In this document: piece by piece, positions 2,145 through 27,198 of the stretch
Layout of the letters: every line of letters starts with the position of its first letter
Position numbering within the stretch: position 1 is the stretch's first letter
Assembly: GCF_013315695.1 (NCBI RefSeq)
Contig: NZ_CP054353.1
Length of the DNA stretch: 64,000 nucleotides
Origin: Escherichia coli
Lineage (GTDB): Bacteria; Pseudomonadota; Gammaproteobacteria; Enterobacterales; Enterobacteriaceae
Strand: one strand, 5' to 3'
Translations under genes and position numbers: made by a program
Notes under the pieces: model-generated
What the model was told of the DNA's origin: nothing
The model's database searches: none
What the model saw: the letters and a program-made list of their open reading frames with translations, nothing else

Positions 2145-2241
2145 TGCAAGTCTAAAGCATAAATCTTTGTCACAAAGGTGGAGGCAATGCCAGTGGTGTG
2201 TGACAATATGAGTATCGGCAGGACATTAAGAGGAATGAGCC

Positions 2242-2658: not shown

Positions 2659-2703
2659 TTAATTGATTAAAATGCCCGATAGCACACACTAGCGGGCATT
2701 TTT

Positions 2704-3207: not shown

Positions 3208-3399
3208 AGTTTAACCCAATAAAAATAAAGTAATTATACATTTGTTTAATACCACTCTCTTCTTACGTGCGCAAGCGTCTTATAAAGCAATAAAGTTTTT
3301 GCCAGCCTATTACTGATAAGAGTATTGTAACGTGGCAGAACATTTTACTGTCTGTATCTATAAATTATATCAATGGATTTTTTAATTCAGGGAATTTTT

Positions 3400-4596: not shown

Positions 4597-4604
4597 GAGA
4601 TAAA

Positions 4605-4640
4605 AAAGGCCGGAGCATGCTCCGGCCTTCGTTTTCATCA
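4605..4640. terminator. Bidirectional rho-independent terminator between yjgN and valS
   Basis: Perfect GC-rich hairpin aaggccggagcatgctccggcctt flanked by A-run and T-run. Confidence 0.65.
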
Positions 4641-4651
4641 CTGTGTTTTGA

Positions 4652-7507
4652 TTACAGCGCGGCGATAACAGCCTGCTGTTCAATCAGCTTAGCTTTCGCT
4701 TCTGCATAGCCTTCCAGCTTCTCACGCTCTTTCGCGATGACCGCTTCCGGTGCGCGGGCGACAAAGCCTTCATTCGCCAGCTTGTTCTCGATACGGCTGA
4801 TTTCGCCTTCGATCTTCGCCACTTCTTTCGCCAGACGCGCCAGCTCATCTTCTTTGTTGATGAGGCCAGCCATCGGGATCAGCAGCTCTGCGCCGTCGAT
4901 GATCTTCGTAACGGAAACCGGACCTTTGTCATCGGCAGGCAGCACGGTGATGCTTTCCAGACGCGCCAGGGTTTGCAGGAAGCCACGGTTTTCATTTACG
5001 CGACGTTCTGCATCCGCGCTGCAACCACGCAGCAGCAGCTCCAGCGGTTTGCCCGGCGCGATATTCATTTCTGCACGGATGTTACGTACGGCAACGATCG
5101 CCTGTTTCAGCCACTCGGTGTCGGCCAGCGCCGCTTCATCAACCTGAGACGCATCATACTGCGGGAACGGCTGCAGCATGATGGTGTCGGCAGTGATACC
5201 GCAAAGTACTTTCACACGCTGCCAGATGGTTTCGGTGATGAACGGAATGATCGGATGCGCGAGGCGCAGCAGACCTTCCAGTACAGTCACCAGCGTATGG
5301 CGAGTACCGCGCAGTTCGGCGTCTGTTCCACCGTTCATTACCGGCTTGGTCAGCTCCAGATACCAGTCGCAGAACTGGTTCCAGGTGAACTCATACAGAA
5401 TGCCTGCGGCGATATCGAAGCGGAAGCTGTCCAGCGCTTCGCGGTACGCTTTGATGGTCTGGTTGAACTCCGCCAGAATCCAGCGATCCGCCAGCGACAG
5501 CGTCATTTCACCGCCGTTAAAGCCGCAATCCTGACCTTCTGTGTTCATCAGCACAAAGCGGCTGGCGTTCCACAGCTTGTTACAGAAGTTACGGTAACCT
5601 TCCAGGCGCTTCATATCCCAGTTGATGTCACGACCGGTAGAAGCCAGTGCCGCCAGGGTGAAACGCAGCGCGTCAGTACCGTGCGGCTCAATACCGTTCG
5701 GGAACTGCTTCTCGGTGCGCTTACGGATTTTGTCCGCCAGCTGCGGCTGCATCATATTGCCGGTACGTTTCTCCAGCAGTTCCGGCAGCGAAATACCGTC
5801 AACCATATCCAGCGGGTCAATAACGTTACCCTTGGATTTGGACATCTTCTGACCTTCGTCATCACGAATCAGACCAGTCATGTAAACGGTGTGGAACGGC
5901 ACCTGCGGTTTGCCATTTTCATCTTTGATGAAGTGCATGGTCATCATGATCATGCGGGCAATCCAGAAGAAGATGATGTCGAAGCCGGATACCATCACGC
6001 TGGTTGGGTGGAACTGACGCAGGGCGTCGGTGTTTTCCGGCCAGCCAAGGGTAGAGAAGGTCCACAGCGCAGAAGAGAACCAGGTGTCGAGAACGTCTTC
6101 GTCCTGACGTAGAGCAACGTCGGCACCGAGGTTATTTTCTTTACGCACTTCATCTTCGTTGCGGCCAACATAAACGTTACCCGCTTCGTCGTACCATGCC
6201 GGGATACGGTGACCCCACCACAGCTGACGAGAGATACACCAGTCCTGAATATCGCGCATCCAGGAGAAGTACATGTTTTCGTACTGCTTCGGTACGAACT
6301 GAATGTCGCCGTTCTCAACCGCTTCAACCGCCGGTTTCGCCAGTACATCGGCACGCACGTACCACTGGTCGGTCAGCATTGGTTCGATAACTACGCCGCC
6401 ACGGTCGCCGTAAGGAACGGTCAGGTCGTGCGGTTTAATTTCTTCCAGCAGGCCGAGTGCGTCAACCGCAGCAACGACCGCTTTACGTGCAGCAAAACGC
6501 TCGAGTTTCTGGAACTCTGCCGGGATTTCGCTGGAATAAACGTCAGATTCGTTACCTTTGGTATCGAACACCTGGGCGCTTTCACGGATATCGCCGTCAA
6601 AGGTCAGGATGTTGATCATCGGCAGCGCGTGACGTTTACCCACTTCATAGTCGTTAAAGTCGTGCGCCGGAGTGATTTTCACGCAGCCGGTGCCTTTTTC
6701 CATGTCGGCGTGTTCGTCGCCAACGATCGGAATACGACGGTTAACCAGCGGCAGAATGACATATTTGCCAATCAGATCTTTGTAACGCGGATCTTCCGGG
6801 TTAACGGCTACGCCAGTATCGCCCAGCAGGGTTTCCGGACGGGTAGTCGCGACCACCAGATAATCTTTACCGTCTGCGGTTTTCGCACCGTCAGCCAGCG
6901 GATAGCGGATGTGCCACATCGAACCTTTCGATTCGCGGTTTTCCACTTCCAGGTCAGAGATAGCGGTGCGCAGTTTCGGGTCCCAGTTTACCAGGCGTTT
7001 GCCACGGTAAATCAGGTCTTCTTTATATAGACGAACGAAAACTTCTTTCACCGCATTGGACAGGCCTTCGTCCATCGTGAAGCGTTCACGCTCCCAGTCG
7101 ACGGAGTTGCCGAGACGGCGCATCTGACGGGTAATGGTGCCGCCGGACTCCGCTTTCCATTCCCAGATTTTGTCGATGAAAGCTTCGCGGCCGTAGTCGT
7201 GACGGGTTTTACCTTCTTCTGCGGCAATCTTGCGCTCAACGACCATCTGGGTAGCGATCCCAGCGTGGTCAGTACCGACCTGCCACAGGGTGTTTTTGCC
7301 CTGCATGCGCTGATAGCGGATCATGGTATCCATGATGGTTTGCTGGAAGGCGTGACCCATATGCAAACTGCCGGTGACGTTCGGCGGCGGGATCATGATG
7401 CAGAAACTCTCCTGGCTTTCATCGCCATTAGGCTTAAAGTAGCCCTGCTTTTCCCAGTGCTCGTAAAGCGGCTGTTCGATATCTTGTGGGTTATATGTCT
7501 TTTCCAT
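4652..7507 (-). CDS. valS: valine--tRNA ligase
   Basis: 951 aa with class I synthetase HMGH and KMSKS motifs and C-terminal coiled coil. Confidence 0.97.
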
Positions 7508-7950
7508 TATTTCCAGGTTGCCGTATTCAGGTTGAAACCAGCCACGCGGTAGGCTTTATAGCGTTCGCGCGCCAGTTGTTTCAGAGAATCTTCATAAGGA
7601 ACGAAGTCTACCACTTCTGTGAAAGCGGTGGCAAAATCTGCAAAGCTTGTTCGCAGACTAATCAATATATCGTGCGGGCTGCTGCTGCGTTTTTGCGGCC
7701 AGGCGATCTCCACCGGCGCACCGCCGCGCGGTCCTTCTCCCGCTAAATTATGCGGAACAAAGCTTTCTGCCGGACGCGCCCATAGGGCTTCATCCAGCCG
7801 GTAAGCCTGCTTTTCATCTTCACAGGCGATGAGCACGCGCTTACCGCTGCGCCAACGTTCTGCGGCAATTTCACACACCAGTTGCTCAACGGCGCTTAAG
7901 CCATCGACGGTGGTGTCATTGTCCAGAAGGTAGAACGTCGCGTTTTTCAT
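7507..7950 (-). CDS. holC: DNA polymerase III chi subunit
   Basis: 147-aa protein matching HolC; immediately upstream of valS with overlapping stop/start. Confidence 0.93.
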
Positions 7951-7984
7951 AAATGGGGCTTCTTGTGGTGGATTTAAATACGCA

Positions 7985-8300
<316 letters not shown>

Positions 8301-8303
8301 CAA

Positions 8304-9818
<1,515 letters not shown>

Positions 9819-10081
9819 CTACGCTCCTGAATCTTAAAGACAACGGCGGTGGCTACAGATAGAATTGCAAGCTTTCGTAACTCATGTCCGCTGTTGCGAT
9901 GACTTCGTGTTAATCTTAACGTTATTACGGCATTGGCACGTCAGAACAAAATCTGAGAGGTGAATCCGTTGAGTATAATTATCTTAGCGACGATTTCGAC
10001 GACTCAAGAGAATAAATGACGTTTAAGCCATGAAACAAGCTAAAATCCTGCAAAAGACGAGTTTTTACGGGCGTATTTAAA

Positions 10082-11182
10082 GTGATAATCATAAGATATC
10101 TGGTGCGGGAGACGCTCAAAAGCCAGCTGGCGATACTCTTCATCTTGCTTTTGATCTTCTTCTGTCAAAAGTTAGTGAGGATCCTCGGCGCAGCGGTTGA
10201 CGGCGATATTCCGGCGAATCTGGTGCTCTCCCTTCTCGGGTTGGGCGTGCCGGAAATGGCGCAGCTTATCCTGCCATTAAGCCTGTTCCTCGGGCTGCTG
10301 ATGACGCTGGGCAAACTGTATACCGAAAGTGAAATTACGGTAATGCATGCCTGCGGCCTGAGCAAAGCGGTTCTGGTGAAAGCGGCAATGATCCTTGCGG
10401 TATTCACGGCAATCGTCGCGGCGATTAACGTGATGTGGGCGGGACCGTGGTCATCGCGTCATCAGGATGAAGTGTTAGCAGAAGCGAAAGCGAACCCTGG
10501 CATGGCGGCGCTGGCGCAAGGGCAATTCCAGCAAGCGACTAATGGCAGTTCGGTGCTGTTCATCGAAAGCGTTGACGGCAGCGATTTCAAAGATGTGTTC
10601 CTCGCGCAAATTCGACCAAAAGGTAATGCACGTCCTTCTGTGGTGGTGGCCGATTCCGGACATTTAACCCAGCTGCGCGACGGCTCCCAGGTCGTCACTC
10701 TCAACCAGGGAACGCGCTTCGAAGGCACTGCACTGTTACGTGATTTCCGCATTACGGATTTCCAGGATTATCAGGCGATCATTGGTCACCAGGCGGTGGC
10801 GCTCGACCCGAACGATACCGACCAGATGGACATGCGCACATTGTGGAACACTGACACCGATCGTGCTCGCGCAGAACTGAACTGGCGTATCACGTTGGTA
10901 TTCACCGTGTTTATGATGGCACTTATGGTCGTACCGCTGAGCGTGGTTAACCCACGTCAGGGACGCGTACTGTCGATGCTGCCAGCCATGCTGCTGTATC
11001 TACTTTTCTTCCTGATCCAGACCTCCCTGAAATCGAACGGCGGTAAAGGTAAGCTGGACCCGACGCTGTGGATGTGGACCGTTAACCTGATTTATCTGGC
11101 TTTGGCGATTGTTCTCAACCTTTGGGACACCGTGCCGGTCCGCCGCCTGCGCGCCAGTTTTTCGCGTAAAGGAGCGGTGTGA
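10082..11182 (+). CDS. lptF: LPS export ABC transporter permease LptF
   Basis: 366-aa membrane permease; synteny divergent from pepA. Confidence 0.93.
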   Translation: MIIIRYLVRETLKSQLAILFILLLIFFCQKLVRILGAAVDGDIPANLVLSLLGLGVPEMAQLILPLSLFLGLLMTLGKLYTESEITVMHACGLSKAVLVKAAMILAVFTAIVAAINVMWAGPWSSRHQDEVLAEAKANPGMAALAQGQFQQATNGSSVLFIESVDGSDFKDVFLAQIRPKGNARPSVVVADSGHLTQLRDGSQVVTLNQGTRFEGTALLRDFRITDFQDYQAIIGHQAVALDPNDTDQMDMRTLWNTDTDRARAELNWRITLVFTVFMMALMVVPLSVVNPRQGRVLSMLPAMLLYLLFFLIQTSLKSNGGKGKLDPTLWMWTVNLIYLALAIVLNLWDTVPVRRLRASFSRKGAV

Positions 11183-12264
11183 TGCAACCTTTTGGCGTAC
11201 TTGACCGCTATATCGGTAAAACTATTTTCACCACCATCATGATGACGCTGTTCATGCTGGTGTCGCTGTCGGGCATTATCAAGTTTGTCGATCAGCTGAA
11301 AAAAGCCGGGCAGGGGAGTTACGACGCGTTAGGCGCAGGAATGTATACCTTGCTGAGCGTGCCGAAAGATGTGCAGATCTTCTTCCCGATGGCGGCTCTG
11401 CTTGGGGCGTTGCTTGGTCTTGGGATGCTGGCGCAGCGCAGCGAACTGGTGGTGATGCAGGCTTCTGGTTTTACCCGTATGCAGGTGGCGCTGTCGGTGA
11501 TGAAAACCGCCATTCCGCTGGTCTTACTGACGATGGCGATTGGCGAATGGGTCGCGCCGCAGGGCGAGCAGATGGCGCGTAACTACCGTGCGCAGGCGAT
11601 GTACGGCGGCTCGTTGCTCTCTACCCAGCAAGGCTTATGGGCGAAAGATGGCAACAACTTCGTCTACATTGAGCGGGTTAAAGGTGACGAAGAGTTAGGT
11701 GGCATCAGCATTTATGCCTTTAACGAGAATCGTCGTCTGCAATCCGTACGCTATGCCGCTACTGCGAAGTTTGACCCGGAACATAAAGTCTGGCGTCTGT
11801 CGCAGGTTGATGAATCTGATCTGACCAATCCGAAACAGATTACCGGTTCGCAGACGGTGAGCGGCACCTGGAAAACCAACCTCACGCCTGACAAACTGGG
11901 CGTGGTGGCGCTGGACCCGGATGCACTCTCTATCAGCGGTTTGCACAACTATGTGAAGTATCTGAAGTCGAGCGGTCAGGATGCCGGACGTTATCAGCTC
12001 AACATGTGGAGCAAAATCTTCCAGCCGCTATCTGTGGCGGTGATGATGCTGATGGCGCTGTCGTTCATCTTTGGCCCACTGCGTAGCGTACCGATGGGCG
12101 TGCGTGTGGTCACCGGTATCAGTTTCGGTTTTGTCTTCTACGTACTGGACCAGATCTTCGGCCCGCTGACGTTGGTTTATGGCATCCCGCCGATCATCGG
12201 CGCACTGTTGCCAAGCGCCAGCTTCTTCTTAATCAGCCTGTGGCTGTTAATGAGAAAATCGTAA
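11182..12264 (+). CDS. lptG: LPS export ABC transporter permease LptG
   Basis: 360 aa; ATG overlaps lptF stop (TGATG), consistent with translational coupling. Confidence 0.93.
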   Translation: MQPFGVLDRYIGKTIFTTIMMTLFMLVSLSGIIKFVDQLKKAGQGSYDALGAGMYTLLSVPKDVQIFFPMAALLGALLGLGMLAQRSELVVMQASGFTRMQVALSVMKTAIPLVLLTMAIGEWVAPQGEQMARNYRAQAMYGGSLLSTQQGLWAKDGNNFVYIERVKGDEELGGISIYAFNENRRLQSVRYAATAKFDPEHKVWRLSQVDESDLTNPKQITGSQTVSGTWKTNLTPDKLGVVALDPDALSISGLHNYVKYLKSSGQDAGRYQLNMWSKIFQPLSVAVMMLMALSFIFGPLRSVPMGVRVVTGISFGFVFYVLDQIFGPLTLVYGIPPIIGALLPSASFFLISLWLLMRKS

Positions 12265-12278
12265 CCGAATGAACGAAT

Positions 12279-12306
12279 AAAGGGAGCGAAAGCTCCCTTT
12301 ATTATT
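12279..12306 (+). terminator. Rho-independent terminator after lptG
   Basis: Hairpin aaagggagc-gaa-agctcccttt followed by a T-rich tail. Confidence 0.65.
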
Positions 12307-12374
12307 GTTAGCAAAGTGTGCTTCGTTCATTCCTGAAAAATAATTAAAATTCAATATATTGCAGTGGGGTGGGC

Positions 12375-12412
12375 ATGATAAGACGCGCCAGCGTCGCATC
12401 AGGCAAAGACAA
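12375..12412. repeat. REP-like palindromic element
   Basis: gataagacgcgccagcgtcgcatcaggc motif shared with the REP units at 7985-8300. Confidence 0.45.
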
Positions 12413-13928
12413 ATCTCGCCTGACTTACCTTCTTCTCCCCCCCCAGCAAACTCCCCAACATCCCGCGTACAATCTGATTCGTCACCTGGCGAGCGGCGCT
12501 TTTGGCCATTGTTTGCACCACACCATCTTTCTTCCCGCCGCGTGGTCCGGTAGTGCCGAACAAAATATCCTTCAATCCACCAAGAATGCCGTCATCCACC
12601 GCTACCTCTTTCCCTTTCGCGGGGGGATTATTTTGCTGCTCGGTACTGGCCTGAAAGCCTTTTTGCAACATCTCATAGGCGGATTCCCGGTCCACCTCAT
12701 CCTCATATTTGCCATACACCGGAGAGTGATTAATCAAGCCATTACGCTCATCTTCCGTCACCGGTCCCATCCGCGAACAAGGCGCAATCACCATCGCCCG
12801 TTCCACCACAGAAGGGCTTCCTTTCGCATCCAGAAAAGAGATCAACGCCTCGCCGGTGCCCAGTTTCTGAATCGCCTTTTCGGTATCAAATGCCGGATTG
12901 ACCCGCATGGTTTGCGCCGCAGCTTTTACCGCTTTCTGATCTTTGGGCGTAAAAGTCCGCAAAGCGTGTTGAACGCGATTACCGAGCTGGCCGAGCACGT
13001 TATCCGGAATATCGGACGGATTTTGCGAAACGAACCAGACGCCCACGCCTTTTGAGCGAATAAGCCTTATCACCTGCTCAATCTTATCCAGCAGTACCTG
13101 CGGTGCATCGTTAAACAGCAGATGTGCCTCGTCGAAGAAAAACACCAGTTTTGGTTTCTCCAGATCGCCCGCTTCCGGCAATTGTTCATACAACTCCGAG
13201 AGCATCCACAACAGGCTGGCGGCATACAGTTTCGGCATCTGATAAAGCTTCTCGGCGCTGAGGATATTGATAACGCCTTTACCGTTGGCATCGGTGCGCA
13301 TCCAGTCTTTGATATCCAGCATCGGCTCACCAAAGAAGTGTGCTGCGCCTTGCTGTTCCAGCGACAACAGCCCGCGCTGGATGGCACCAACCGATGCGCT
13401 ACTGATATTTCCGTACTGATTCTGGAAAGATTTGGCGTTATCGCCGATGTATTGGGTAATCGCCCGCAAATCTTTAAAGTCGAGCAGTAACAGCCCCTGA
13501 TCGTCAGCAATGCGGAAGATGATATTCAGCACGCCAGATTGCACATCGTTGAGATTCAACAGCCGCGCCAGCAACAGCGGCCCCAGATCCGAAACCGTCG
13601 CCCGCACCGGATGGCCTTTCTCGCCAAAGATATCCCACACCACCACCGGATTGGCATGCGGTTGCCAGTCATTGACGCCGATATTTTTAAGCCTTGTGAG
13701 CAGTTTTTCCGACGCCGTTCCTGCCTGCGCGATACCGGTCAGATCGCCTTTCACATCAGCCATAAACACCGGCACGCCGATTTCCGACAATGACTCTGCC
13801 AGTTTTTGCAGCGTAACGGTTTTACCCGTCCCCGTTGCGCCAGTAATCAGCCCGTGACGGTTAGCCATTCCCGGCAGTAAAAACAGTTCTGTGTCCGGCG
13901 TGCGGGCAATTAACAGGGGTTCGCTCAT
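12399..13928 (-). CDS. yjgR: DUF853 family P-loop NTPase
   Basis: Walker A GATGTGKT; start set at MSEPLL with GGAGG RBS to give about 500 aa. Confidence 0.85.
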
Positions 13929-14055
13929 GAGATTTCCTCCAGTTCCTGCCTGGAGTATAGGCAACGGCTGTGCACTCTTCACCGCTAAATTCAGCAGATT
14001 GCGAGACGCCTTCCAAAGAGATTTAAGTGCCGGGCGACAGCACCCGGCAAAGGGA

Positions 14056-15075
14056 TCAGAAGTCAGCTTTCAGGACTACTCGGTAGCGAGCTTTACCATC
14101 GCGTACATGCTGAATGGCGTCGTTAATTTTCGACATCGGGAACAGTTCGGTTGTCGGCGCAACCTTGCTGCGGGCGGCAAAGCGCATCAGCTTTCGCAGC
14201 TCATAAGGCGTGCCGGTAGCAGAACCAGAGATGCTGCGGTCGCCCGCAATTAACGTAAAGGCCGGAACAGACAGCGGCGTGAGAACCGCACCGACCGTAT
14301 GGAAATTACCGCCATAGGTCAGCGCCTCAAAATAAGGCTGCCAGTCGAGGCTGACGTTCACAGTATTGATAATGAGATCAAACTGCCCCGACAGGGCTTT
14401 CAGTGCCTGCGGATCGCGGCTATTCACCACTTTATCGGTACCCATCGCCAGTACTTCCTGCTCTTTCGCCGGATTAGAACTAAAGGCCGTCACCTCGCAT
14501 CCCATTGCGTGCAGAAGTTTTATAGCGATATGCCCCAGCCCGCCAATACCAATTACCCCAACGCGGCTGGTAGCAGTGATATGGTGCATCAACAGTGGTT
14601 TAAAGACCGTGATACCGCCGCACAACAGCGGCCCGGCGGACTCGATATCAATATTTTCTGGCAGTGGAATCACCCATTGCCAGTCCGCACGCAACTTCTC
14701 GGCAAAGCCACCGCGATTCATAATCGTCGGCACCGCACCTTGCTCGCAGTTGATCTGATTACCGCTAATACAGGCGTCGCAGTGACCACAGCTACGCGCC
14801 GTCCAGCCAATCCCGACACGCTGACCGACCTGCAAACCTTTATCCTGCGCGGCGCTCCCGAGTGCCACCACGCGCCCAATCACCTCATGCCCGGCAACCA
14901 GCGGATATTGTGAAAATCCCCATTCGTTATCGATCATCGACAGATCGGAATGACAAATCCCGCAGTAATCCACCTGCACTTCAACATCTTGTGGCTTCAG
15001 CTCACCGGGATCGTACTCATAAACTTCCAGTTCGCCGCCCGCTTCTTTTGCGGCATAGCTTTTTATCATCGACAT
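14056..15075 (-). CDS. ahr: NADPH-dependent aldehyde reductase, zinc-type alcohol dehydrogenase family
   Basis: Zn-binding GHE and CGxCxxC motifs plus GxGxxG Rossmann motif; start set at MSMIKSYAA (339 aa). Confidence 0.9.
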
Positions 15076-15270
15076 TTTTGGGTCCTTCTCTGGTGTTGTT
15101 TGGGAAGTGTAGAGCATGGCAGGGCGGGGTGCCTGGAGTGTGACAAAGGTTACATATCGCTGAGTGTAATGCTGAAAATTTCAGCACTTAGCGAGGTGGG
15201 TGCAAGCTGGCGCTTGCATGGTGGCGTGCGACAGGTATAATCCACAACGTTTTCCGCATACCTCTTCAGT

Positions 15271-15355
15271 GCCGAAGTGGCGAAATCGGTAGACGCAGTT
15301 GATTCAAAATCAACCGTAGAAATACGTGCCGGTTCGAGTCCGGCCTTCGGCACCA
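15271..15355 (+). tRNA. leuX: tRNA-Leu (anticodon CAA)
   Basis: 85-nt sequence gccgaagtggcgaaatcggtagacgc...ggcacca with long variable arm and CAA anticodon loop, ending in CCA. Confidence 0.92.
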
Positions 15356-15357
15356 TC
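15313..15357 (+). repeat. Direct repeat copy 1 (leuX 3-prime end, attachment-site core)
   Basis: 45 bp identical except one mismatch to 25708-25752. Confidence 0.8.
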
Positions 15358-15889
15358 TACATTTTCCTCTTGAAAAACAAGCGATTAAGTAAATTATTTT
15401 ACCTTTTTTGCCTATCTAATCTTCACTGATTCTTTCCCGTATAAAAGCCACTGTGATTGTTAATGGCTTTGGTATGTTAGCACGCAGTGGCAAGTAGTTA
15501 CCAGGCTCAACCTTGTACTGCATACGCCAGTATGCCCCCCTTTGAAGCAGGAAGACGCGCCGCCGTCTCTAAACCTATGCCAAGCACTTTTAACCGTTCC
15601 ACACTTAGTTCGGCGTTCCGTTCAAGCCTGTCGTGGTGACTTACCACGAATAAACAAGCAAATTCGCGGTATGGTATTCGTTACGAGAGCGGTTAACTGA
15701 CAAGACTCCTGTGATACGCCTAAGGTGCTTAAATTGATGCGTCCAACATGGCACAAAAGGCGGTCTATCGTTTAATTTTGCTCCATACATCAACTGGCAT
15801 TGCCAGCTGTATGGGGCTTGGTCTGCTGGTTCCGATGAACGGATTAAATTGCTAAGATGCAGACCATAAGCCATAAGGCGGAGATAAGT

Positions 15890-17098
15890 ATGAAATCTGT
15901 AGAACTATTTGCCGGTGCTGGTGGCTTGGCTATGGGTTGCGAAATTGCTGGTTTTGAGCATCTTGCAGTCGTTGAATGGGATAAATGGGCCTGTGATACC
16001 GTTAGAGAGAACAAAAAGAATGGCTTTCCGCTGTTGTCTGATTGGGATCTTTTTGAGGGTGATGTAAGAGAATTTGATTGGTCGAAAATCCCTAAAGGGA
16101 TTGACCTTCTTGCGGGAGGGCCACCTTGCCAGCCATTTTCAATCGGTGGTAAGCACAAGGCTAATTCTGATTCGCGGGACATGTTTCCAGCGACAGCAGA
16201 AGCGATCAGGCAAATTCGCCCTAAGGCTTTCATCGTCGAGAATGTGAAAGGCTTAACACGGGCAACCTTTGCGAGCTATTTCCAGTACATCCAGTTACAG
16301 CTTGAGTTTCCAGAAGTAGCCCCGCGAAATGGCGAAGACTGGAGCGAGCATTTAAAACGCTTGCAGGAAGAAAAAACCAGTGGAAAGAACAAAGGGAGAG
16401 GGCTGACGTATAACGTTCTGGCTACGTTAGTCAATGCAGCAGACTACGGCATCCCACAAAAACGTGAGCGTGTCTTCATTGTTGGCTTCCGCGATGATCT
16501 TGAAATTGAGTGGTCGTTCCCTAAACCGACACACAGTTATGATGCACTCGTTTATGATCAGTGGGTTACTGGTGATTACTGGAAACGACATGGTTTAGAA
16601 ATGCCAACTGTTCCAAGCCAGATGGTTAACCGTATCGCAAAATTGCGTAAAAATCCTCCCGATACACTTCCGTGGAAAACTGTTCGAGATGCAATCGCGG
16701 ATTTGCCAGATCCTGAAACAAAGGCGGCAAAGATGATCCGGAATCATGCGTTCCAGGCGGGGGCACGAACTTATCCCGGTCATACCGGAAGCCCCTTAGA
16801 TCTGCCAGCTAAAACGCTCAAAGCAGGTGCTCATGGCGTTCCTGGGGGCGAGAACATGCTTGTTCGTGATGATGGCTCAGTACGCTATTTTACTGTGCGA
16901 GAAAGTGCCAGAATTCAAACATTTCCCGATAGTTATCGTTTTCACGGGAGTTGGACTGAAACTATGAGGCAGTTAGGTAACGCTGTGCCGGTTCATTTGG
17001 CGTATTGCGTTGCCAGCAGTGTAGCGGAAAAGCTGCTGACCTCTGAAATTGGGAACATCCTTAAGCAGGGTGGCAATTATAAAAGGGCTTCTGCATGA
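15890..17098 (+). CDS. DNA (cytosine-5)-methyltransferase, Type II R-M modification subunit
   Basis: Motif I FAGAGG, motif IV GGPPCQPFS, motif VI ENVKGL; start set at MKSVELF with GGAG RBS. Confidence 0.88.
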   Translation: MKSVELFAGAGGLAMGCEIAGFEHLAVVEWDKWACDTVRENKKNGFPLLSDWDLFEGDVREFDWSKIPKGIDLLAGGPPCQPFSIGGKHKANSDSRDMFPATAEAIRQIRPKAFIVENVKGLTRATFASYFQYIQLQLEFPEVAPRNGEDWSEHLKRLQEEKTSGKNKGRGLTYNVLATLVNAADYGIPQKRERVFIVGFRDDLEIEWSFPKPTHSYDALVYDQWVTGDYWKRHGLEMPTVPSQMVNRIAKLRKNPPDTLPWKTVRDAIADLPDPETKAAKMIRNHAFQAGARTYPGHTGSPLDLPAKTLKAGAHGVPGGENMLVRDDGSVRYFTVRESARIQTFPDSYRFHGSWTETMRQLGNAVPVHLAYCVASSVAEKLLTSEIGNILKQGGNYKRASA

Positions 17099-17745
17099 CA
17101 GGAAAGGTCATACCATTTAATCCACTTGATAAACAAAATTTAGGTGCCAGCGTTGCGGAAGCCTTATTGAGCAAAGATGCTCATCCTCTGGAGGAGTTAA
17201 CCTCATTTCAAGGAGCAGGGATTTACGCAATTTATTACACTGGCGATCATCCTGCTTATAGGCAACTGGCAGAACTGAATCGTGACGGGCAATTTCGATT
17301 GCCTATCTACGTGGGTAAGGCCGTCCCAGCAGGGGCGAGAATGGGGCTTACCAACCCTGATAAGGTTGGTAACGTTCTGTTTAGGCGCTTGAAAGAACAT
17401 GCAGAAAGTATTCGCGCAGCGGAAAATCTTTCGATTGAAGATTTTTATTGTCGATTTTTGGTTGTTGATGACATCTGGATCCCATTGGGAGAATCGCTGG
17501 TTATCTCTCGCTTTAAACCGATTTGGAATTCGTCTATTGATGGTTTCGGTAATCATGACCCAGGTAAGCATCGCTACACTGGTTTACGTCCTCGCTGGGA
17601 CTTTATGCACCCGGGGAGAGGATGGGCTCAAAATTTACGTGAGCGTGATGAAACTGTGGATGAACTCATTCGTGATTCTATACAGTATCTTCAGAATTTA
17701 CCGCCTTGCTTGGCTCAGAAATTTATCGAAGCTGAAGGCGATTAA
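17095..17745 (+). CDS. GIY-YIG family restriction endonuclease (Eco29kI-like)
   Basis: GIYAIYY ... YVGKA motifs; 216 aa; start overlaps the methyltransferase stop (ATGA). Confidence 0.6.
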   Translation: MTGKVIPFNPLDKQNLGASVAEALLSKDAHPLEELTSFQGAGIYAIYYTGDHPAYRQLAELNRDGQFRLPIYVGKAVPAGARMGLTNPDKVGNVLFRRLKEHAESIRAAENLSIEDFYCRFLVVDDIWIPLGESLVISRFKPIWNSSIDGFGNHDPGKHRYTGLRPRWDFMHPGRGWAQNLRERDETVDELIRDSIQYLQNLPPCLAQKFIEAEGD

Positions 17746-17866
17746 TCAGCAAATGATCATCGGAGGCATCTGCCTCCGAATGTGATTAAGCCTTGGTTGA
17801 CAAAGTGGTTGCTTAAAACATTAAGCGTTAATTTTCTGGCCCTCTACCTTCTGACGTGCATAATTC

Positions 17867-18442
17867 TCAAATATCAGGGAGTTGCAAGAACGACTTAAGT
17901 CGGTAGAAGGTTGCTTTGCTGATCTCTAACCTATCCTGGACCGCTGCTGGTGGTAATCCTCGTGCTAATAACTCACGTACTTGTTCAACGGTTGCTTTGA
18001 TCGGTCTGCCGCAATGCTTACCTTCCGACTGAGCTCGTTTGATTCCTGCGGCTCTACGCTCTGCGATTAGGTCTTTTTCCAGGCTGGCAAGTCCTGCCAT
18101 CATAGTGAGCATGGCTTTACCCACTGGTGTTGAAAGATCAAACCCCTCTCGCAAGCTGACAACCTTCACACCCTTCATTTGCAACATTTCAACAGTAGAT
18201 AGTACATCGATAGTGTTACGTCCCAAGCGGTTTATAGCAATCACGATCAGCGTATCGCCTTCTCGCACATAATTGAGTAGTTCAGCAAACCCTGGACGCT
18301 CTCCTGCCTTGATTGCACCACTCACCGCTTCATCACTAAACCAGCGAGTTACGCTATAACCAGCATCGGCTATCTGCTTCTTCTGGTTTTCAACGTTTTG
18401 ATCGCTGGTGGAAACTCGCACATATCCGATCACAGTTGTCAT
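17867..18442 (-). CDS. serine recombinase (resolvase/invertase family)
   Basis: N-terminal GYVRVSTSDQ catalytic serine motif and C-terminal HTH; 191 aa. Confidence 0.88.
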   Translation of the reverse strand: MTTVIGYVRVSTSDQNVENQKKQIADAGYSVTRWFSDEAVSGAIKAGERPGFAELLNYVREGDTLIVIAINRLGRNTIDVLSTVEMLQMKGVKVVSLREGFDLSTPVGKAMLTMMAGLASLEKDLIAERRAAGIKRAQSEGKHCGRPIKATVEQVRELLARGLPPAAVQDRLEISKATFYRLKSFLQLPDI

Positions 18443-18449
18443 GATGTTC

Positions 18450-18580
18450 TCTAAGTCTCAAAAGGTAGTGTCAAAATAATAGCTGTCTCAAAATTAAAGA
18501 TCAACCTTTTGAGACAAGGCGAAGCCGCATTCTGTCGTTGCGTCGGTGTGGTCTTATAAGGAGATGGTTTTGAGACTGGA
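18450..18580. promoter_or_regulatory. Candidate recombination (res-like) site upstream of the serine recombinase
   Basis: Four copies of GTCTCAAAA: two direct (18456, 18485) and two inverted (18507, 18568). Confidence 0.35.
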
Positions 18581-18681
18581 TAGCAGCGGTTTAGGAATAG
18601 AGGCTTGGAACGAGAGTATGGGGAGAATGGAAATTCGGAATGGGCGGTCAACTTATTGGGCGTGATTGCTCACGCCTTTGT

Positions 18682-19033
18682 TTAGATCTCAGAACACAGG
18701 CTCAGCGTGTAGAGTGCCGTTTCACCATCGTTGTTAGTTGGGCGCATAACGAAAACTGGATCACTGCCGTTGTCGATGTAAGTAACCGCTATTCCACCGT
18801 CTGGGGTGGCGTACATCTTCGCAATACTTTTCTCTCCAATGAAACCCAGCCGCCAGGTTTTACCACCCATGCTCACTTTCATGATTTTGTCCCGCACATC
18901 GAGGCGAGTTTCGACAGACGATTTTTGGCTACCAGAATCTATCTGCCCTTCCTGAATGGCCTTACAGGTGAATGTGGTTGCACTTGAGGCGAAGGGGGGG
19001 GACGAGCAGCGCCGCGAGAATCAATTTTTTCAT
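18682..19033 (-). pseudogene. Small secreted protein gene disrupted by a frameshift in a G8/C8 homopolymer
   Basis: ATG at 19033 encodes signal-peptide-like MKKLILAALLVPP, then the frame breaks at the C8 run (18994-19001); removing one C fuses it to ORF 18682..18897. Confidence 0.5.
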
Positions 19034-19213
19034 GGTCTTCCTTTTGGATACGAGTTAAGAGTTCGTCGGGAGACATTATAAAATCTTTAATTGATAAAAA
19101 CGATCAATTTCTATCGTATTGATCGATAAAATTGATCATAATTGAAACTATAAATCCTACGCTCAGTCGTTATGGATGAGGTTTTTTATAAGAGAACTCA
19201 ACGGGATGATGTT

Positions 19214-19420
19214 ATGAAAAGAGCAATGATGGTGATGTGTGGGCTACTGTTTTCACAGTTGGTAGCAGCAGGGCAGATCACAATGATCGATCCCCAGCAG
19301 GATACGACGGAGAATGGCAAGACGCTTTGCACCTACGAGAACAGCCAGTATGTTTTTACCTACGTCACTAAAGGGCAGTGCCCCTATGCAAAGACTTTCG
19401 ATACTCAGGATTCAGAGTAG
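19214..19420 (+). CDS. small putative secreted protein (about 68 aa, two Cys)
   Basis: Internal start MKRAMMVMCGLLFSQLVAAG gives a signal-peptide-like N-terminus. Confidence 0.4.
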   Translation: MKRAMMVMCGLLFSQLVAAGQITMIDPQQDTTENGKTLCTYENSQYVFTYVTKGQCPYAKTFDTQDSE

Positions 19421-20490
19421 AGGCTGCATAAAATAGGAAGTGTTGTTTAACTTCATGAAAAGACAGGTGTGCTTAGCACAAGCCTCCAACGGATTGATTG
19501 TTAATTCTTCTGATAACGGCACAGCGCAAGGCTTTACGCAAAGAGAGTGATAGTTACTATCTTGATGACTATGGCAATTTTCCCCCTGTAACAACGGCAT
19601 TCATTACCTGCTAATTACCAGCGGATTACGCGCCAGTTTGATGGGAATTAACTCAGGGTTATTGCATGGGGTAGTGTGGAGTGAGCAGGGTGACAGTCTA
19701 CCGTTGGGTGAAGGGCTGATAGGTAATCGACGCGAAGCGCCGGAACCATACTGTTATGCGCTGGCCTTGGTGCCAGGCTCACGCCGCGCATGAAAGATAG
19801 CCATTACAGGAGAGATAATTTTTGACAAGTTACCTTCATCAAAGGTGCTTCTCCTGTATAAATGCTTGTTATGCTCGCTATGCTCCCAAACACAAACCCA
19901 TTAAACCCAACTAACTTAAGGTTAGTTAATTGGTTTTCTCTCTCTCTTGGGCTACTACCGCCCAAACTTTGCTTAATGCCATACAGCGACTACGCCGCCA
20001 TTAACAACACTCCACAATGATCCAATGGCATTCCTGCTTAATGTCATCCACCGATCTTGATTAGCCACCAACCAAACAACCACCCTAAATCTTTTAGGCT
20101 GTCTGTTTATCTGGTGCAAGGTAGCTATGACATTACCATACGTGCAAACATCCCAAGCCAATCATCACTGATTGGCTCGTGCTGATGCACTTCAGTGCAG
20201 AGAGAGAATCTCTCTACTATTATAGCGTATTTAGTAGGTCCCTGTATTTAAAGGAAAAATTAGGGTGAAAATCGCCATTGTTCACTTTTTTTCTCAAGAA
20301 ATGGCGAGATGCTGTTCGTAAATGGGAGGCATGGCTGTCTTCTCTGGTGGCAAGTTCTACCACAAATTTTGATTGACAGCAACCATCTATTTCTGGTATA
20401 AGAAGCACTAATTGCAAAGCAAAAATGCAACTAATTGAAAATGACCAAAAATATTTCATGAGATCACCGTTTGGGTATTGACAAACGTTA

Positions 20491-20781
20491 GTGGTCTATG
20501 GTATTCTTAATACTAAGAAGGGGAGAAAACCTTCTGAACTTTTCAGCCCTGGGCAGGGTAACTGCCTGGGGCTTTTTGCATCCAAAATCCGAAGGAGGCC
20601 ATTATTGAAGTATTACAGCAGTGACCAGATTTTTAATGACCTGGTGAGCGGCGAAGTGAAACGCCACGTTATTTACGCATCTATGCAAGCAGCAAAATCG
20701 AGAGGGTATACAGACCGAATGGAAATGTTTCAATCTGCAATTATCCGTTATGACCAACACCGAAGGGAGAACACCAACTAA
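20491..20781 (+). CDS. small hypothetical protein; true start may be the TTG at about 20608 after the AAGGAGG RBS
   Basis: ORF 10 nt upstream of the 306-aa ORF; strong RBS aaggagg at about 20593. Confidence 0.4.
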   Translation: MVYGILNTKKGRKPSELFSPGQGNCLGLFASKIRRRPLLKYYSSDQIFNDLVSGEVKRHVIYASMQAAKSRGYTDRMEMFQSAIIRYDQHRRENTN

Positions 20782-20790
20782 GGAGGAACA

Positions 20791-21711
20791 TTGATTCAAG
20801 CATACGAAGACGGCTATTTTTACAGAGATACCCCGCACCACGATCACTGCCCGCTTTCAGCATTTTCCAGACCATCCCAGCAATTCATCGTTATTGATAA
20901 TGTTCTGTACGTTGTCGAAGTGGAAAGTGGTGAAATTCTTCACTACGACTCGACAGAGTATTTGCTTGATGGTGGCATTGTTCAGGATCTGCATTTGAGT
21001 TACTCGACAGCAGACACCGCCAAATCAAAACAGGCTCACCGTGAATACGCTAATAAGCTGGGCGACCTTCCAGGGAATGCAGCCTATAACGGGATCAAGG
21101 AATACGCAGACGTATTAAGCAAGCCAGATTTCAAGAAAGTATTTGCATTGTGTCAGGAAGTAGATAGACGCAATGTAGTGTTTATAAAACGTGCGGATTT
21201 GAGCATAATACTGAACACCACGCCGGATCATCTCAATCGTGTATTATCTGCTCTTGAACGTAAGCACTACATCAAAGTTGATAAAGCTGAACACCAGAAA
21301 GGAGTATTAAAACTGTGGGTTAATCCTTCGTTTGTCTGGAAGGGTGATTCAGCTAACCGCTACTTATCTGGATATTTGCAGGGCTTCCCAATCTTGGAAC
21401 GTAAACGCTCCACAAAACGTTCTGACGTGCTCGACACGCTCACGGCTGCTGCAATGGTTGCCTTTGATACCTGGCACATTGAACACGGTTATAAGGCCAA
21501 TCAGCCTCATTCTAATGAATGGTATGCAGAGATCACGATGTACGAAAACGCCTACGGCGAAGGGGTGAGGCTTGCAGCAGAAAATAAGACATTGAACAAG
21601 TTATTGAACCCGGCAACATCTGAGGGGGATTTCGTTTATGAGCTATTCACTACGGCACAATACAGGGAATACCTGCAAACATTGGCAAAACAAGTAAGGA
21701 GATTACACTGA
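20791..21711 (+). CDS. hypothetical 306-aa protein with possible winged-helix segment
   Basis: Long ORF with GGAGG RBS; no recognisable catalytic motif. Confidence 0.6.
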   Translation: MIQAYEDGYFYRDTPHHDHCPLSAFSRPSQQFIVIDNVLYVVEVESGEILHYDSTEYLLDGGIVQDLHLSYSTADTAKSKQAHREYANKLGDLPGNAAYNGIKEYADVLSKPDFKKVFALCQEVDRRNVVFIKRADLSIILNTTPDHLNRVLSALERKHYIKVDKAEHQKGVLKLWVNPSFVWKGDSANRYLSGYLQGFPILERKRSTKRSDVLDTLTAAAMVAFDTWHIEHGYKANQPHSNEWYAEITMYENAYGEGVRLAAENKTLNKLLNPATSEGDFVYELFTTAQYREYLQTLAKQVRRLH

Positions 21712-21995
21712 ACCAATGTTTTGTAATAAAGAAGCCAGCACAATACTTATTTGAACTAAATTAAGCAACTCTCATACACACCGCTCTTTTGGTGAGTTAT
21801 TTATTACTATCTTTAAGGTGATGAGTGTTTATACTGTATTAAATTATTATAAATAAGGGGATGGTGTATGATTACAGCTCTTTATTGGTGTTTGTTCTTT
21901 CAGTTTGCGCTGTATTTTTTGTCTAAATTAAATTTAAATTGAAAATTAGCCCTGATCTTGAAATAGTTCAGGGCTGGAATTTCTAAAAAATAACA

Positions 21996-22955
21996 TCAGT
22001 GTGCTTTTAGTTCATCTTTAGCTAATGAGTCATAGAGTATTTTTGTGAGCGGAGACTCTAAATAATCATCACTAAGTAGTTTAATAAAATGCTTTTGGGA
22101 TTCTTTTGTTTTTACGAGCAATTGTGTGCCGTCTTCACTTACAATTAAAACTGTTGAAAGATAGGTATGCTTGCTTACATAATCGATAATTTCTGGCACA
22201 TCAATTTTCCCCAGTACAGGTGAGTGTTTGGCAATTTTGGCAAGCTTCCTTGAGAAAGAAATTTCTTTTGCACTCTTCTCAAGGTGAGTAAGATCTTCGA
22301 TAAGCAATGAAGCTTTCAATGCTTCCAAAGCCACCGTTGCTTGAGCTTCAATAACCTGATGGAACTGCATCGTTATTTCTAAAGTTTTTTGATTTTTTAT
22401 CAGGAATTCGTCGTCTATAAGAGCCAAGTCATAATTATAATCTAATCGGAACACTTGGGTTGGCAATTCTTTTAAATACCCGTCTGCGTCTGGTATCAAG
22501 TTAAACAATTTTCGGCTTTGCTCAAAAACCATGAGGTTTGTTTTGTTCTTATACAATGACAAACACTTATTGTTGCCTCTTAACTGAATTATTATCCCTT
22601 TCACGTCAGTAAATTTATTATTTAAATCATAATAATCCTGAGAGTTAGGCGGTATGGCTATTGCATTTTTTATAAAATCAAACTCTTTTGGATGTTCTTC
22701 ATAATCAAATGCAAACAAGGCATTTTTTCTATCATCAAAATTCGAAAGGAGAGGAATGGTTAAATCCTCATTTGTCACAATGTCGTCGTAAAGCCTAATT
22801 TTGAATCCTTCAACAATTTTTGGTAAAGCTTCAGCATCTATTTTAGATAATTTTAATTCATAATTATCTTCAGTTTTAACTATAAAGATAATTCTTATAC
22901 CTGAGAAATTATCGAAAATTTCGGTGATTTGATTTTTAAAATTCACAGGGGTCAT
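21996..22955 (-). CDS. 319-aa soluble protein, KwaB-like (candidate Kiwa component)
   Basis: Co-oriented with and overlapping the membrane protein gene; size and order match the Kiwa KwaA-KwaB arrangement. Confidence 0.55.
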   Translation of the reverse strand: MTPVNFKNQITEIFDNFSGIRIIFIVKTEDNYELKLSKIDAEALPKIVEGFKIRLYDDIVTNEDLTIPLLSNFDDRKNALFAFDYEEHPKEFDFIKNAIAIPPNSQDYYDLNNKFTDVKGIIIQLRGNNKCLSLYKNKTNLMVFEQSRKLFNLIPDADGYLKELPTQVFRLDYNYDLALIDDEFLIKNQKTLEITMQFHQVIEAQATVALEALKASLLIEDLTHLEKSAKEISFSRKLAKIAKHSPVLGKIDVPEIIDYVSKHTYLSTVLIVSEDGTQLLVKTKESQKHFIKLLSDDYLESPLTKILYDSLAKDELKAH

Positions 22956-24309: not shown

Positions 24310-25593
24310 CTATTTATCAGTTTTCTCACGTTGGGGCTCCGTCTCTATCTCTGGGTAACGTAATAGCTCGATGTATGGCTGTAGTTCAATCGGAGATGCT
24401 GCATTCTTGCTGTACGTCTTGAAACTTTCTGTAGAGCCGCGCTCATGACCCAAGAGAAGTGCGATCCGGTCTTCTGTAACTGGTTTTAACTTACCTCGTC
24501 CAACCCCCCCACGATCCAGAATCTGCGCCACTGCATGGCGTAGACTGTGAAAAACTTTCAACTCTGATCCTACTTCCCCCAATGCCTTACGTTTAGCCCT
24601 CGTAAAACGCTGTGAATGCCACGTAGAGCGCTTTCCATCTGCGCGGTCAGCTATCGACGCACGATAGAATAAAAAGCCGTTATGGGGCTTCTCACGCAGC
24701 GACAAAACCAACGGAGTGATCAGGCTATGCACCGGAATAATACGGGCTGCTGATTTGGTCTTCCCCTCCGTCACTTCGAAACATAACACCCCTTCAATCT
24801 CTCGGATGTTGGCTGCACGTAATGAACAAATTTCATTCAGGCGCATACCGCTATACATCCCGATCAGCGTTACATTTTGCATCTCTTCATCATTCGCCAT
24901 CACAGCGAACACCTTCGCCAATTCTCCAGGCTCAAATACTTCATAACTCACCTTGCTACTTTTGGCCTCCAGCGCATGACCGCGCCAGATGTTTTCTTGC
25001 GGTGCATCGTGGTAGCGATTACGGGCCAGATCCCAGATTTGAGCCAGTGCGCTGACATAGTTTTGTATGGTCTGTGGTGCTTTCTCCGTCTTGAGCTGAT
25101 CAAGCCAGCCTGTAACGGTGGTTCGGTTAACGTCACGAAGCTGAACATCACGCTTTTTCAGATGTTCTAAGAGCACTTCAACAGCCTTGTTTGTCTTCGA
25201 TAGCGTAGTGAGTTTGCGCTTCTCGCTGAACTGCAATAGATAAAGATCACGCATTTTCAGGAGGGATGGCACTCCTTGGGATTGGGTATTGCTCATGACA
25301 TGCTGAACAGGTGTTTCATGAACTCGGGCGCTAACTCTGCGTAGCTCTGCAATTGCCTGCTCAATCTTACTCCCTTCTCTTGGTTTGACCTGTTCCCGTA
25401 AACGTATCCATTCAACAGCGATAGCATCTCTGAACAATCGCGCCTGACGTATGTCACTTGTGCCAGTGCTCTTGACGAAGTAGCGCTTGTTGCCAAAAAG
25501 CGAGCGCATGTAAGCTGGAACGGTAATCCTTACCAGATAGTTTCCGCATGGATCTAAAACTAAGTAACGATCTCTCTTGAAACTCATGTTCAC
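24310..25593 (-). CDS. tyrosine-type site-specific integrase
   Basis: C-terminal catalytic region with HSLRH and LLGH motifs; adjacent to the distal direct repeat. Confidence 0.88.
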   Translation of the reverse strand: MNMSFKRDRYLVLDPCGNYLVRITVPAYMRSLFGNKRYFVKSTGTSDIRQARLFRDAIAVEWIRLREQVKPREGSKIEQAIAELRRVSARVHETPVQHVMSNTQSQGVPSLLKMRDLYLLQFSEKRKLTTLSKTNKAVEVLLEHLKKRDVQLRDVNRTTVTGWLDQLKTEKAPQTIQNYVSALAQIWDLARNRYHDAPQENIWRGHALEAKSSKVSYEVFEPGELAKVFAVMANDEEMQNVTLIGMYSGMRLNEICSLRAANIREIEGVLCFEVTEGKTKSAARIIPVHSLITPLVLSLREKPHNGFLFYRASIADRADGKRSTWHSQRFTRAKRKALGEVGSELKVFHSLRHAVAQILDRGGVGRGKLKPVTEDRIALLLGHERGSTESFKTYSKNAASPIELQPYIELLRYPEIETEPQREKTDK

Positions 25594-25707: not shown

Positions 25708-25752
25708 ACCGTAGAAATACGTGCCGGTTCGAGCCCGGCCTTCGGCACCATC
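25708..25752 (+). repeat. Direct repeat copy 2 (partial leuX 3-prime end)
   Basis: accgtagaaatacgtgccggttcgagcccggccttcggcaccatc matches tRNA 3-prime end 15313-15357 with one mismatch. Confidence 0.8.
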
Positions 25753-25948: not shown

Positions 25949-27126
25949 ATGGCTCTGAGTGATGTGAAGGTTCGTTCGGCTAAGCCTGAAGCAAAAGCCT
26001 ATAAGCTGACCGACGGTGAAGGCATGGTTTTGCTGGTTCACCCTAACGGCTCCAAATACTGGCGGCTACGTTATCGCTTTGGCGGTAAAGAGAAGATGCT
26101 GGCATTGGGGAAATACCCCGAAGTGTCGTTGGCGGATGCCAGGGCACGCCGGGATGAGGCTCGTAAGCTTTTAGCTAATGGTGTCGATCCCAGTGAAAAC
26201 AAGAAAGCTGTTAAGGTAGAATAGGAACAAGAGGCGATAACGTTTGAAGTAGTCGCCAGAGACTGGCACGCCAGCAATCAGAAGTGGTCGGCATCGCATA
26301 GCGCTCGTGTTTTGAAAAGTCTGGAGGATAATCTCTTTACTGCTATCGGTAAGCGGAACATTGCGGAACTGAAGACGCGGGATCTTCTTGTACCCATTAA
26401 AGCAGTCGAGTCATCCGGGCGGCTCGAAGTTGCCGCCCGTTTACAGCAGCGTACTACCGCGATTATGCGCTTTGCCGTTCAGAGCGGCTTAATCGACTAC
26501 AACCCCGCGCAAGAGATTGCAGGTGCGGTTGCTACGGCGAAAAGACAGCACCGTGCAGCTCTTGAACTGAACCGTATACCTGAATTACTTCATCGCATAG
26601 ATCACTATTCTGGCAGACCGTTAACTCGACTGGCGGTTGAACTCACTTTATTGGTTTTCATCCGTTCGAGCGAGCTGCATTTTGCCCGCTGGTCAGAAGT
26701 AGATTTTGAAACGGCTATGTGGACAATCCCAGGTGAGCGTGAGCAACTGGAAGGAGTCAAGCATTCTCAGCGTGGCTCGAAGATGCGGACACCACACCTT
26801 GTACCTTTGTCGCGGCAGGCCCTAAGTATTTTGGAAAAGATCAAAAGCATGAGCGGAAATTGAGAGCTGATTTTTGTGGGCGATCACGATCCACGTAAGC
26901 CGATGAGTGAGAATACGGTGAACAAGGCTTTGCGCGTAATGGGGTATGACACGAAGGTCGAGGTTTGTGGGCATGGCTTCAGGACGATGGCTTGTAGTTC
27001 GTTGATTGAGTCGGGATTATGGTCGAGGGATGCGGTAGAGCGGCAGATGAGTCACCAGGAGCGTAGCTCTGTGCGAGCCGCTTACATCCATAAGGCGGAA
27101 CATCTTGGGGAGCGTAGGTTGATGTT
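25949..27126 (+). pseudogene. intB: P4-type integrase, fragmented and truncated by IS911
   Basis: N-terminus MALSDVKVRSAKPEAKAYKLTDGEG; reading frame broken into three ORFs; 3-prime end replaced by IS911 left end. Confidence 0.8.
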
Positions 27127-27198
27127 TGAAGTGGCACACTGAATTTGGCCACCTGAACAGAGGTGATATGCTCACCTCAGAACAACACAGGTGCTCCA

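Follow-up and report, generated by a model that had tools for sequence, protein, structure and literature searches.

A one-base expansion of a young cytosine run has very probably inactivated a predicted secreted-protein gene on a leuX island of Escherichia coli

A gene that loses its reading frame exactly at a homopolymer may be a switch caught in its OFF position, a coding sequence rescued during its expression, an assembly error or a gene that has recently died. We address this question for a minus-strand gene of E. coli in a 64,000-nucleotide stretch of DNA (the window; contig NZ_CP054353.1). Bases 1-15200 of the window are 100% identical to the chromosome of E. coli strain EcPF7, and over 15500-22250, which takes in most of the island that carries the gene, the two differ by one SNP. 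We favor the reading, which we consider very probable, that the gene is a pseudogene, recently inactivated and stably inherited, whose lesion arose when a young homopolymer slipped.

The coding sequence occupies 352 nt (18682..19033, minus strand) and its frame breaks 12 codons in, at a run of eight G residues on the plus strand (18994-19001; GGGGGGGG). On the coding strand this is a C8 run covering codons 11-14, where the intact allele has C7. Translation would begin at the ATG at 19033, 5 nt downstream of an AAGGAAG Shine-Dalgarno sequence (the Shine-Dalgarno-like AAAGGAAG at 19037..19044, minus strand, is kept in divergent alleles), run through MKKLILAALLV and PP into LRLKCNHIHL, and end at a stop codon at 18962-18964. 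The product would be a 23-aa signal-peptide stub (MKKLILAALLVPPLRLKCNHIHL; 18962..19033, minus strand), and a truncation this early suggests that the C8 allele makes no functional full-length protein. Downstream lies a remnant ORF (18682..18897, minus strand) that holds the conserved mature domain without a signal peptide, and it is a 66-aa piece of this remnant (P0042) that gene callers report in C8 genomes. Deleting one C in silico joins stub and remnant into an ORF of 351 nt, with its end at 18682, whose product is a 116-aa precursor (MKKLILAALLVPPFASSATTF...SLCSEI), predicted to be secreted and assigned to PHROG 35183. A sequence-only reading of this DNA had placed the loss of frame exactly at the 8-nt run and had proposed that removal of one base would yield a secreted-type protein by fusion to this ORF. 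Both points hold, with a predicted signal peptidase site between ASSA and T, although the repaired protein has 116 aa, against the estimate of about 117 aa; the longer form would need a C10 tract, and its 117-aa product is found on none of the contigs in a collection of 15 billion proteins.

Taken alone the tract is statistically unremarkable, as the window has two G/C runs of at least 8 nt where first-order Markov simulations lead one to expect 0.84 (P = 0.22). The run acquires meaning from its position, because it is the sole difference between the coding sequence in the window and the intact allele WP_000733505.1, a 351-nt CDS present in strains JSWP006, CEA106S and MINF_7C. The frameshift itself was already known, for RefSeq labels the sequence "hypothetical protein, frameshifted" in the genomes of EcPF7, MS15047 and NCTC9080 (locus tags HR071_RS16445, K6128_RS22685 and EL145_RS19750).

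How common each tract length is in public data bears directly on whether the extra base is real. An allele at least 88% identical is carried by 49 of 5,426 complete E. coli genomes; the allele spans 352 nt in 3 of the 49 and is one base shorter in the other 46. Exact-product look-ups in the 15-billion-protein collection gave 307 contigs for the intact C7 product (P0001, 116 aa) and 168 contigs, drawn from NCBI, ENA and Logan and including NCTC9080, for the truncated 66-aa call that is diagnostic of C8. Much rarer were a 130-aa fusion corresponding to C6 (P0005; 6-16 contigs) and a 131-aa fusion corresponding to C9 (P0032; 6-9 contigs, one of them seen in 13 samples). Only C7 is in frame, and by our calculation from the contig counts about 38% of contigs with tract-bearing alleles have one of the out-of-frame lengths C6, C8 or C9. 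The alleles that occur on the most contigs have no tract (822 contigs for P0043 and 148 for P0044). A scan of JGI metagenomes with a variable-gap pattern returned only four contigs (two with C7 and two with CCTCCCC), too few to add weight.

The sequence-only reading had left room for a sequencing error at the homopolymer, in which case the true tract would be C7 and the eighth base a miscall. Long-read platforms are indeed error-prone at homopolymers, and the assemblies JACWBS and JACWBV (C6) disagree with their siblings JACWBT and JACWBU (C7). For C8, however, we regard this explanation as extremely unlikely. Our reasoning is that: (i) C8 is identical in the independent complete assemblies of EcPF7 (USA), MS15047 (Sweden) and NCTC9080; (ii) its diagnostic product recurs on contigs from three separate data sources; (iii) it is fully linked to at least three flanking SNPs, as a random miscall would not be; and (iv) the C7 of the sister haplotype is called cleanly in data of the same kind. 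The four sibling assemblies (L011, L012, L031 and L032, that is, GCA_020556505.1, GCA_020556615.1, GCA_020556595.1 and GCA_020556585.1) have consecutive accession numbers and are each about 4.947 Mb long, and all of them contain many split genes (lptF/G, yjgR and kwaA/B), a pattern that resembles long-read homopolymer error. Some of the C6 calls come from these error-prone assemblies (L011 and L012), so the number of independent C6 events is uncertain, but the other C6 contigs and one further complete genome (L043) look clean.

The origin of the run can be followed through the alleles of relatives. At codons 11-14 strain C has GTC CTC TCC TTC (VLSF), while E1739 and most alleles across the Enterobacteriaceae have GTC CTC CCC TTC (VLPF), and neither form contains a tract. 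In JSWP006, and likewise in CEA106S and MINF_7C, the same codons are GTC CCC CCC TTC (VPPF), which creates an in-frame C7; the window type has one C more than this and loses its frame. No member of the gene family departs from Pro13, and position 12 is occupied by L, F or I in all but the tract-bearing lineage; outside that sub-lineage the alleles have CTCCCC, CTCTCC or other codons. Estimates of dN/dS are 0.06-0.09 for the mature domain and about 1-1.8 for the signal peptide. As judged from these ratios, the mature domain is under strong purifying selection and the signal peptide evolves almost neutrally. The alleles of relatives, together with this weak constraint, show that one T>C substitution gave rise to the run, in the region of the gene where constraint is lowest.

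These comparisons lead us to propose the following history. In one sub-lineage a T>C substitution in the core of the signal peptide (CTC to CCC, Leu12 to Pro), directly visible in the alleles, turned CCTCCCC into C7. The added base that distinguishes C8 from C7 is equally plain, and replication slippage would be its likely cause. Translation of the C8 allele would then end after 23 residues and leave the mature domain with neither a start codon nor an export signal. The broken allele would have become fixed on one island haplotype (haplotype B, below) and been passed on both vertically and horizontally with the island, and further occasional slips would have given C9 on that haplotype and C6 on the other (haplotype A), both out of frame. 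Published work is consistent with such a course. In mismatch-repair-defective E. coli there is an exponential increase in indel rate as runs lengthen, and G:C runs of 8 bp act as hot spots (PMC8510543). A survey of Escherichia found a correlation between the length of a tract and the proportion of pseudogenes; in conserved genes most tracts measure 6 nt and none exceeds 8 nt (PMC8928963).

Two further features are those of a pseudogene. The intact orthologue (WP_000733505.1, on the 307 contigs noted above) belongs to a set whose mature domain shows the low dN/dS just described, and the lesion is a defined and inherited one, a single added C that is linked to haplotype B and found in three complete genomes and on 168 contigs. 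The C8 coding sequence differs from the intact C7 allele at the tract only, with no secondary lesions; the absence of accumulated secondary mutations indicates that the inactivation is recent, and this part of the sequence-only reading is sustained.

The window's only other 8-nt G/C run lies at the 3' end of yjgR (12437-12444; yjgR is on the minus strand) and is likewise a derived one-base expansion. Relatives have CTGGGAGGGAGAAGAAGGTAA, with the interrupted run GGGAGGG, and a 500-aa protein ending in ...LLGGRRR*. The window, EcPF7, MS15047 and NCTC9080 have CTGGGGGGGGAGAAG, in which the last codons are shifted and the protein is 509 aa long. RefSeq annotates this form without a frameshift flag, and the protein is probably still functional as only its last few codons are affected.

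If the tract were a switch, its length should vary independently of descent. We examined length against haplotype in a 4.4-kb alignment around the gene. The alignment comprised 45 sequences (the window and 44 locus entries, with some genomes fetched more than once), and 27 parsimony-informative SNPs were scored in it. The longest 23-26 contigs of each look-up were read, and as the intact product occurs in 693 index blocks, a haplotype B revertant from C8 to C7 may have escaped notice. Within the alignment C8 and C9 were confined to haplotype B, which is marked by A at 19086, C at 18470, A at 18232 and recombinase WP_000214247, and C6 and C7 were confined to haplotype A, marked by recombinase WP_000214246. 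Seven further haplotype B places, found through the haplotype-specific recombinase protein, all had C8. In the tally of 16 haplotype B entries (longest contigs, some repeats) 13 had C8 and three had C9; none had reverted to the in-frame C7. The minimum history that accounts for this distribution is one C7-to-C8 change, at least one C8-to-C9 change and at least two C7-to-C6 changes, the latter on at least two sub-haplotypes, and thus at least four length changes on a very shallow genealogy. By a rough estimate the tract changes at hundreds of times the per-site substitution frequency of the same 4.4 kb. The tract is, in short, a mutational hot spot.

C8 islands occur in two markedly different chromosomal backgrounds: at most C8 loci the neighboring ahr gene is 100% identical to that of the window, and at one locus (L017, which represents 21 more similar places) it is 94.6% identical. 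The presence of a C8 island in the 94.6% background indicates that the broken allele moved with the island. The window's ahr directly adjoins yjgR (14056-15075), many other E. coli having about 5 kb more between the two, including idnT; at L017, idn genes lie between ahr and yjgR.

Might the run nevertheless be a contingency locus, that is, a slipped-strand switch in which C7 is ON and C6, C8 and C9 are OFF, which operates at high frequency and from which the island or its host profits? The tract is indeed within the 5' part of the coding sequence, and its length decides the frame. Four lengths occur in nature, C6 having arisen on at least two sub-haplotypes; the out-of-frame share among tract-bearing contigs is substantial; and the gene encodes a predicted exported protein on a defence island, a class of product in which phase variation is frequent. 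The repeated length changes on a shallow genealogy also mean that the locus may switch reversibly at a low rate. What argues against this explanation is the pattern of descent. The tract is limited to one young sub-lineage, and the commonest alleles lack it, so that it has not been maintained across alleles. Its length follows haplotype exactly, with rare one-base variants and, among the entries aligned, no passage from ON to OFF and back, and C8 has been kept in at least two chromosomal backgrounds, in a culture-collection strain as well as in clinical isolates. Typical G/C switch tracts are longer than C7, E. coli has active mismatch repair and, to our knowledge, the species is not known to use homopolymer switches. 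C7 is here the only ON state, in a genus in which the tracts of conserved genes are mostly of 6 nt (PMC8928963). We consider the contingency explanation improbable; the locus is not a demonstrated contingency locus, and selection for switching is not indicated.

A variant of this idea would make the locus a newly born contingency locus, in which the signal-peptide substitution gave a conserved island gene a mutable C7 tract, ON and OFF forms are sorted by selection (e.g. by phage or host pressure on a secreted island protein) and an OFF form has swept one haplotype. This we judge to be quite improbable. If true, it would be an uncommon chance to observe the birth of a homopolymer switch in an enterobacterium proficient in mismatch repair.

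Comparing tract length among related genomes, the check that the sequence-only reading had suggested, thus turned up C6 to C9, an intact C7 in relatives and tract-less forms in most alleles. Its appeal to slipped-strand events fits the origin of the C8 allele, given that all four lengths occur. Its further suggestion of phase-variable switching fares poorly: most alleles have no tract, length tracks haplotype with none of the 16 haplotype B entries at C7, and C8 persisted through transfer.

A pseudogene of the kind we favor could still leak some full-length protein, and it is conceivable that the C8 gene is in effect recoded, and so weakened and not dead, either because tRNA-Pro slips by +1 on CCC-C or because slippage occurs during transcription. 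The C8 sequence GTC CCC CCC CTT contains two consecutive CCC-C motifs, and a +1 slip at either would restore the C7 protein. Moreover, CC[C/U]-[C/U] is a documented slippery sequence, and at codon 2 in E. coli it supports +1 frameshifting of up to about 1% (PMC4519876). That figure, however, applies to codon 2, the most shift-prone position (PMC4519876), and the motif here is at codons 12-13. Programmed sites are conserved among homologues, but the run is found in one haplotype only; the homologues are run-less and single-frame, single-frame alleles being the rule, and a residual activity of 1% or less would not constitute a designed mechanism. Recoding is in our estimation very improbable, and we return to a recently formed pseudogene as the preferred reading.

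With regard to what has been lost, the predicted signal peptide of the repaired protein consists of MKK, the core LILAALLVPPF and ASSA, with cleavage expected before T and a hydropathy peak of 2.6. The basic n-region, hydrophobic core and small-x-small pattern appear to be kept in all family members. UniRef names the protein 'Secreted protein', and its sole family match is to PHROG 35183 (function unassigned; E = 4.5e-26). Searches of Pfam, even at E = 10, and of NCBIfam and PADLOC gave no matches, and a sequence-profile search of the PDB gave nothing below E = 0.3. Two AlphaFold2 runs produced low-confidence models (mean pLDDT 43.6 and 52.0), both all-beta, from which we take the mature protein to be probably all-beta. 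Foldseek against the PDB found nothing at E <= 0.001; its weak lipocalin-like matches (TM <= 0.5) were dismissed because the model is unreliable.

The orphan family to which the protein belongs is enterobacterial and very small. Among 1.84 billion representatives (50% clustering) a profile search recovered only 14 relatives, mostly fragments. The source names in the homologue search place the family in E. coli, E. albertii, Enterobacter and Buttiauxella, and the names of cluster members add Klebsiella pneumoniae and Raoultella. All full-length members have a signal peptide and a Cys23...Cys113 pair, and Trp60 and most of a KSIAKMY motif are present in every aligned member. A phage collection returned no match to the protein, and plasmids gave no DNA match; the single protein match in the plasmid search (41% identity) was on a 439-kb record, among genes that are annotated as chromosomal elsewhere (thiM, thiD and rcnR). 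A 41%-identical paralogue, WP_000836936.1, lies between thiM and rcnR in E. coli (locus L054, 4001-4672) and has as its neighbor a gene of 104 aa that is annotated 'outer membrane protein'. Strain K_EC180 has an island inserted beside rcnR that contains a 70%-identical homologue together with an integrase and GmrSD. The two divergent alleles that we inspected likewise lie in integrase islands that contain a serine recombinase and defence-type cargo, which is GmrSD in one case and an AAA ATPase with a cytosine methyltransferase in the other. Our best inference from these sequence features is that the intact product, which such islands encode repeatedly, is a small periplasmic or secreted protein with a disulfide bond.

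The island in the window is 10.4 kb long and is inserted in the tRNA-Leu(CAA) gene leuX (15271-15355). It is bounded by a 45-nt direct repeat, with attL formed by the 3' end of leuX at the left boundary (15313..15357, plus strand) and attR, a repeat of the leuX 3' end that is identical at 44 of 45 positions, at the right (25708..25752, plus strand). In order, the island carries an Eco29kI-family restriction-modification pair, a serine recombinase of the resolvase/invertase family (17867..18442, minus strand), the frameshifted gene, a divergent 68-aa gene, a winged-helix gene, Kiwa (KwaA and KwaB) and, beside attR, a tyrosine integrase (24310-25587, minus strand). The recombinase is the downstream neighbor of the frameshifted gene in close alleles, and the 68-aa protein (19214..19420, plus strand; PHROG 4641), which has a signal-peptide-like N-terminus, is its conserved partner there. 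The island appears to be horizontally mobile, its haplotype being found in backgrounds whose ahr is 94.6% identical. It was inserted ahead of an older, degraded leuX island that consists of an integrase pseudogene (25949-27130) and IS debris. In the winged-helix gene (20791-21711) the window base at 20888 is unlike that of EcPF7 and of all relatives compared, and changes ACC to ATC (Thr33 to Ile). A literature search on integrase islands that bear Kiwa found nothing on the leuX element.

Between the stop codon of the frameshifted gene and the start of the recombinase gene is a spacer of about 240 bp (18443..18681, minus strand). It contains a hairpin (18658-18677) and, at 18455-18515, three TTTTGAGAC motifs, one inverted and two direct, and an alignment of window 18443-18700 is 95% conserved across alleles, against 71% for the promoter region. 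The serine recombinase may use this spacer as a res site or as an operator for its own regulation. The possibility of a promoter inverted by the adjacent recombinase was considered and dismissed, since all island loci of the same type align collinearly as single alignments with no inversion seen. Convincing inverted repeats flanking the gene were not found, and the TTTTGAGAC motifs occur only upstream of the recombinase gene, which also counts against an invertible promoter. Within about 55 bp the divergent promoter region (19095-19150) has five ATCAAT/ATTGAT-like motifs in addition to three GATC sites, and these could be regulator-binding or Dam-sensitive sites; related GATC[AG]ATTTTA repeats are present in the diverged strain C and EC96 alleles.

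The practical outcome is that the frameshift is genuine and that the annotation as a pseudogene should stay and not be "corrected"; beyond such annotation hygiene its import is small. What is added here is the evolutionary path (a substitution makes the run, which then slips), the fact that the broken allele is frequent in the population, and its dispersal by a mobile island. The locus offers a clean, small example of a coding homopolymer that is born in a weakly constrained signal peptide and then decays, and yjgR is a second. The high proportion of out-of-frame alleles among tract-bearing contigs suggests that loss of the protein is tolerated, at least in sampled isolates. Given how rare C6 and C9 calls are and how sibling long-read assemblies contradict one another, phase variation should not readily be inferred from tract differences between assemblies. 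Apart from the frameshift, the gene family itself, a conserved predicted secreted protein beside a serine recombinase in small defence-cargo islands, could merit study.

There are several known systems with which the locus can be compared. It resembles the poly-G/C contingency loci of Neisseria, Haemophilus, Campylobacter and Bordetella (PMC1891110) in that a 5' G/C run frames an exported protein and several tract lengths exist in natural isolates; the C-run of Bordetella bvgS is an example of such a locus (Stibitz 1989, as cited in PMC8928963). It differs from them in that the tract is not conserved across alleles, its length tracks genealogy and no reversion was seen, and also in that the ON length is only 7 nt and the host has intact mismatch repair. 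With the CCC-C sites at which tRNA-Pro shifts by +1 (PMC4519876) it shares two frame-restoring contexts, but this is not a conserved recoding site and any rescue would be incidental and amount to at most about 1%. The G8 run of yjgR has taken a parallel course, from an interrupted ancestor to a pure run one base longer and a change of frame, although there only the last few codons are affected and the annotation carries no flag. The closest likeness is to the homopolymer-slippage pseudogenes of Escherichia (PMC8928963), in which a 1-nt change in a run breaks an otherwise intact gene; the 8 nt seen here equals the longest tract that the survey reports for conserved genes, and in nothing essential does our case depart from that class.
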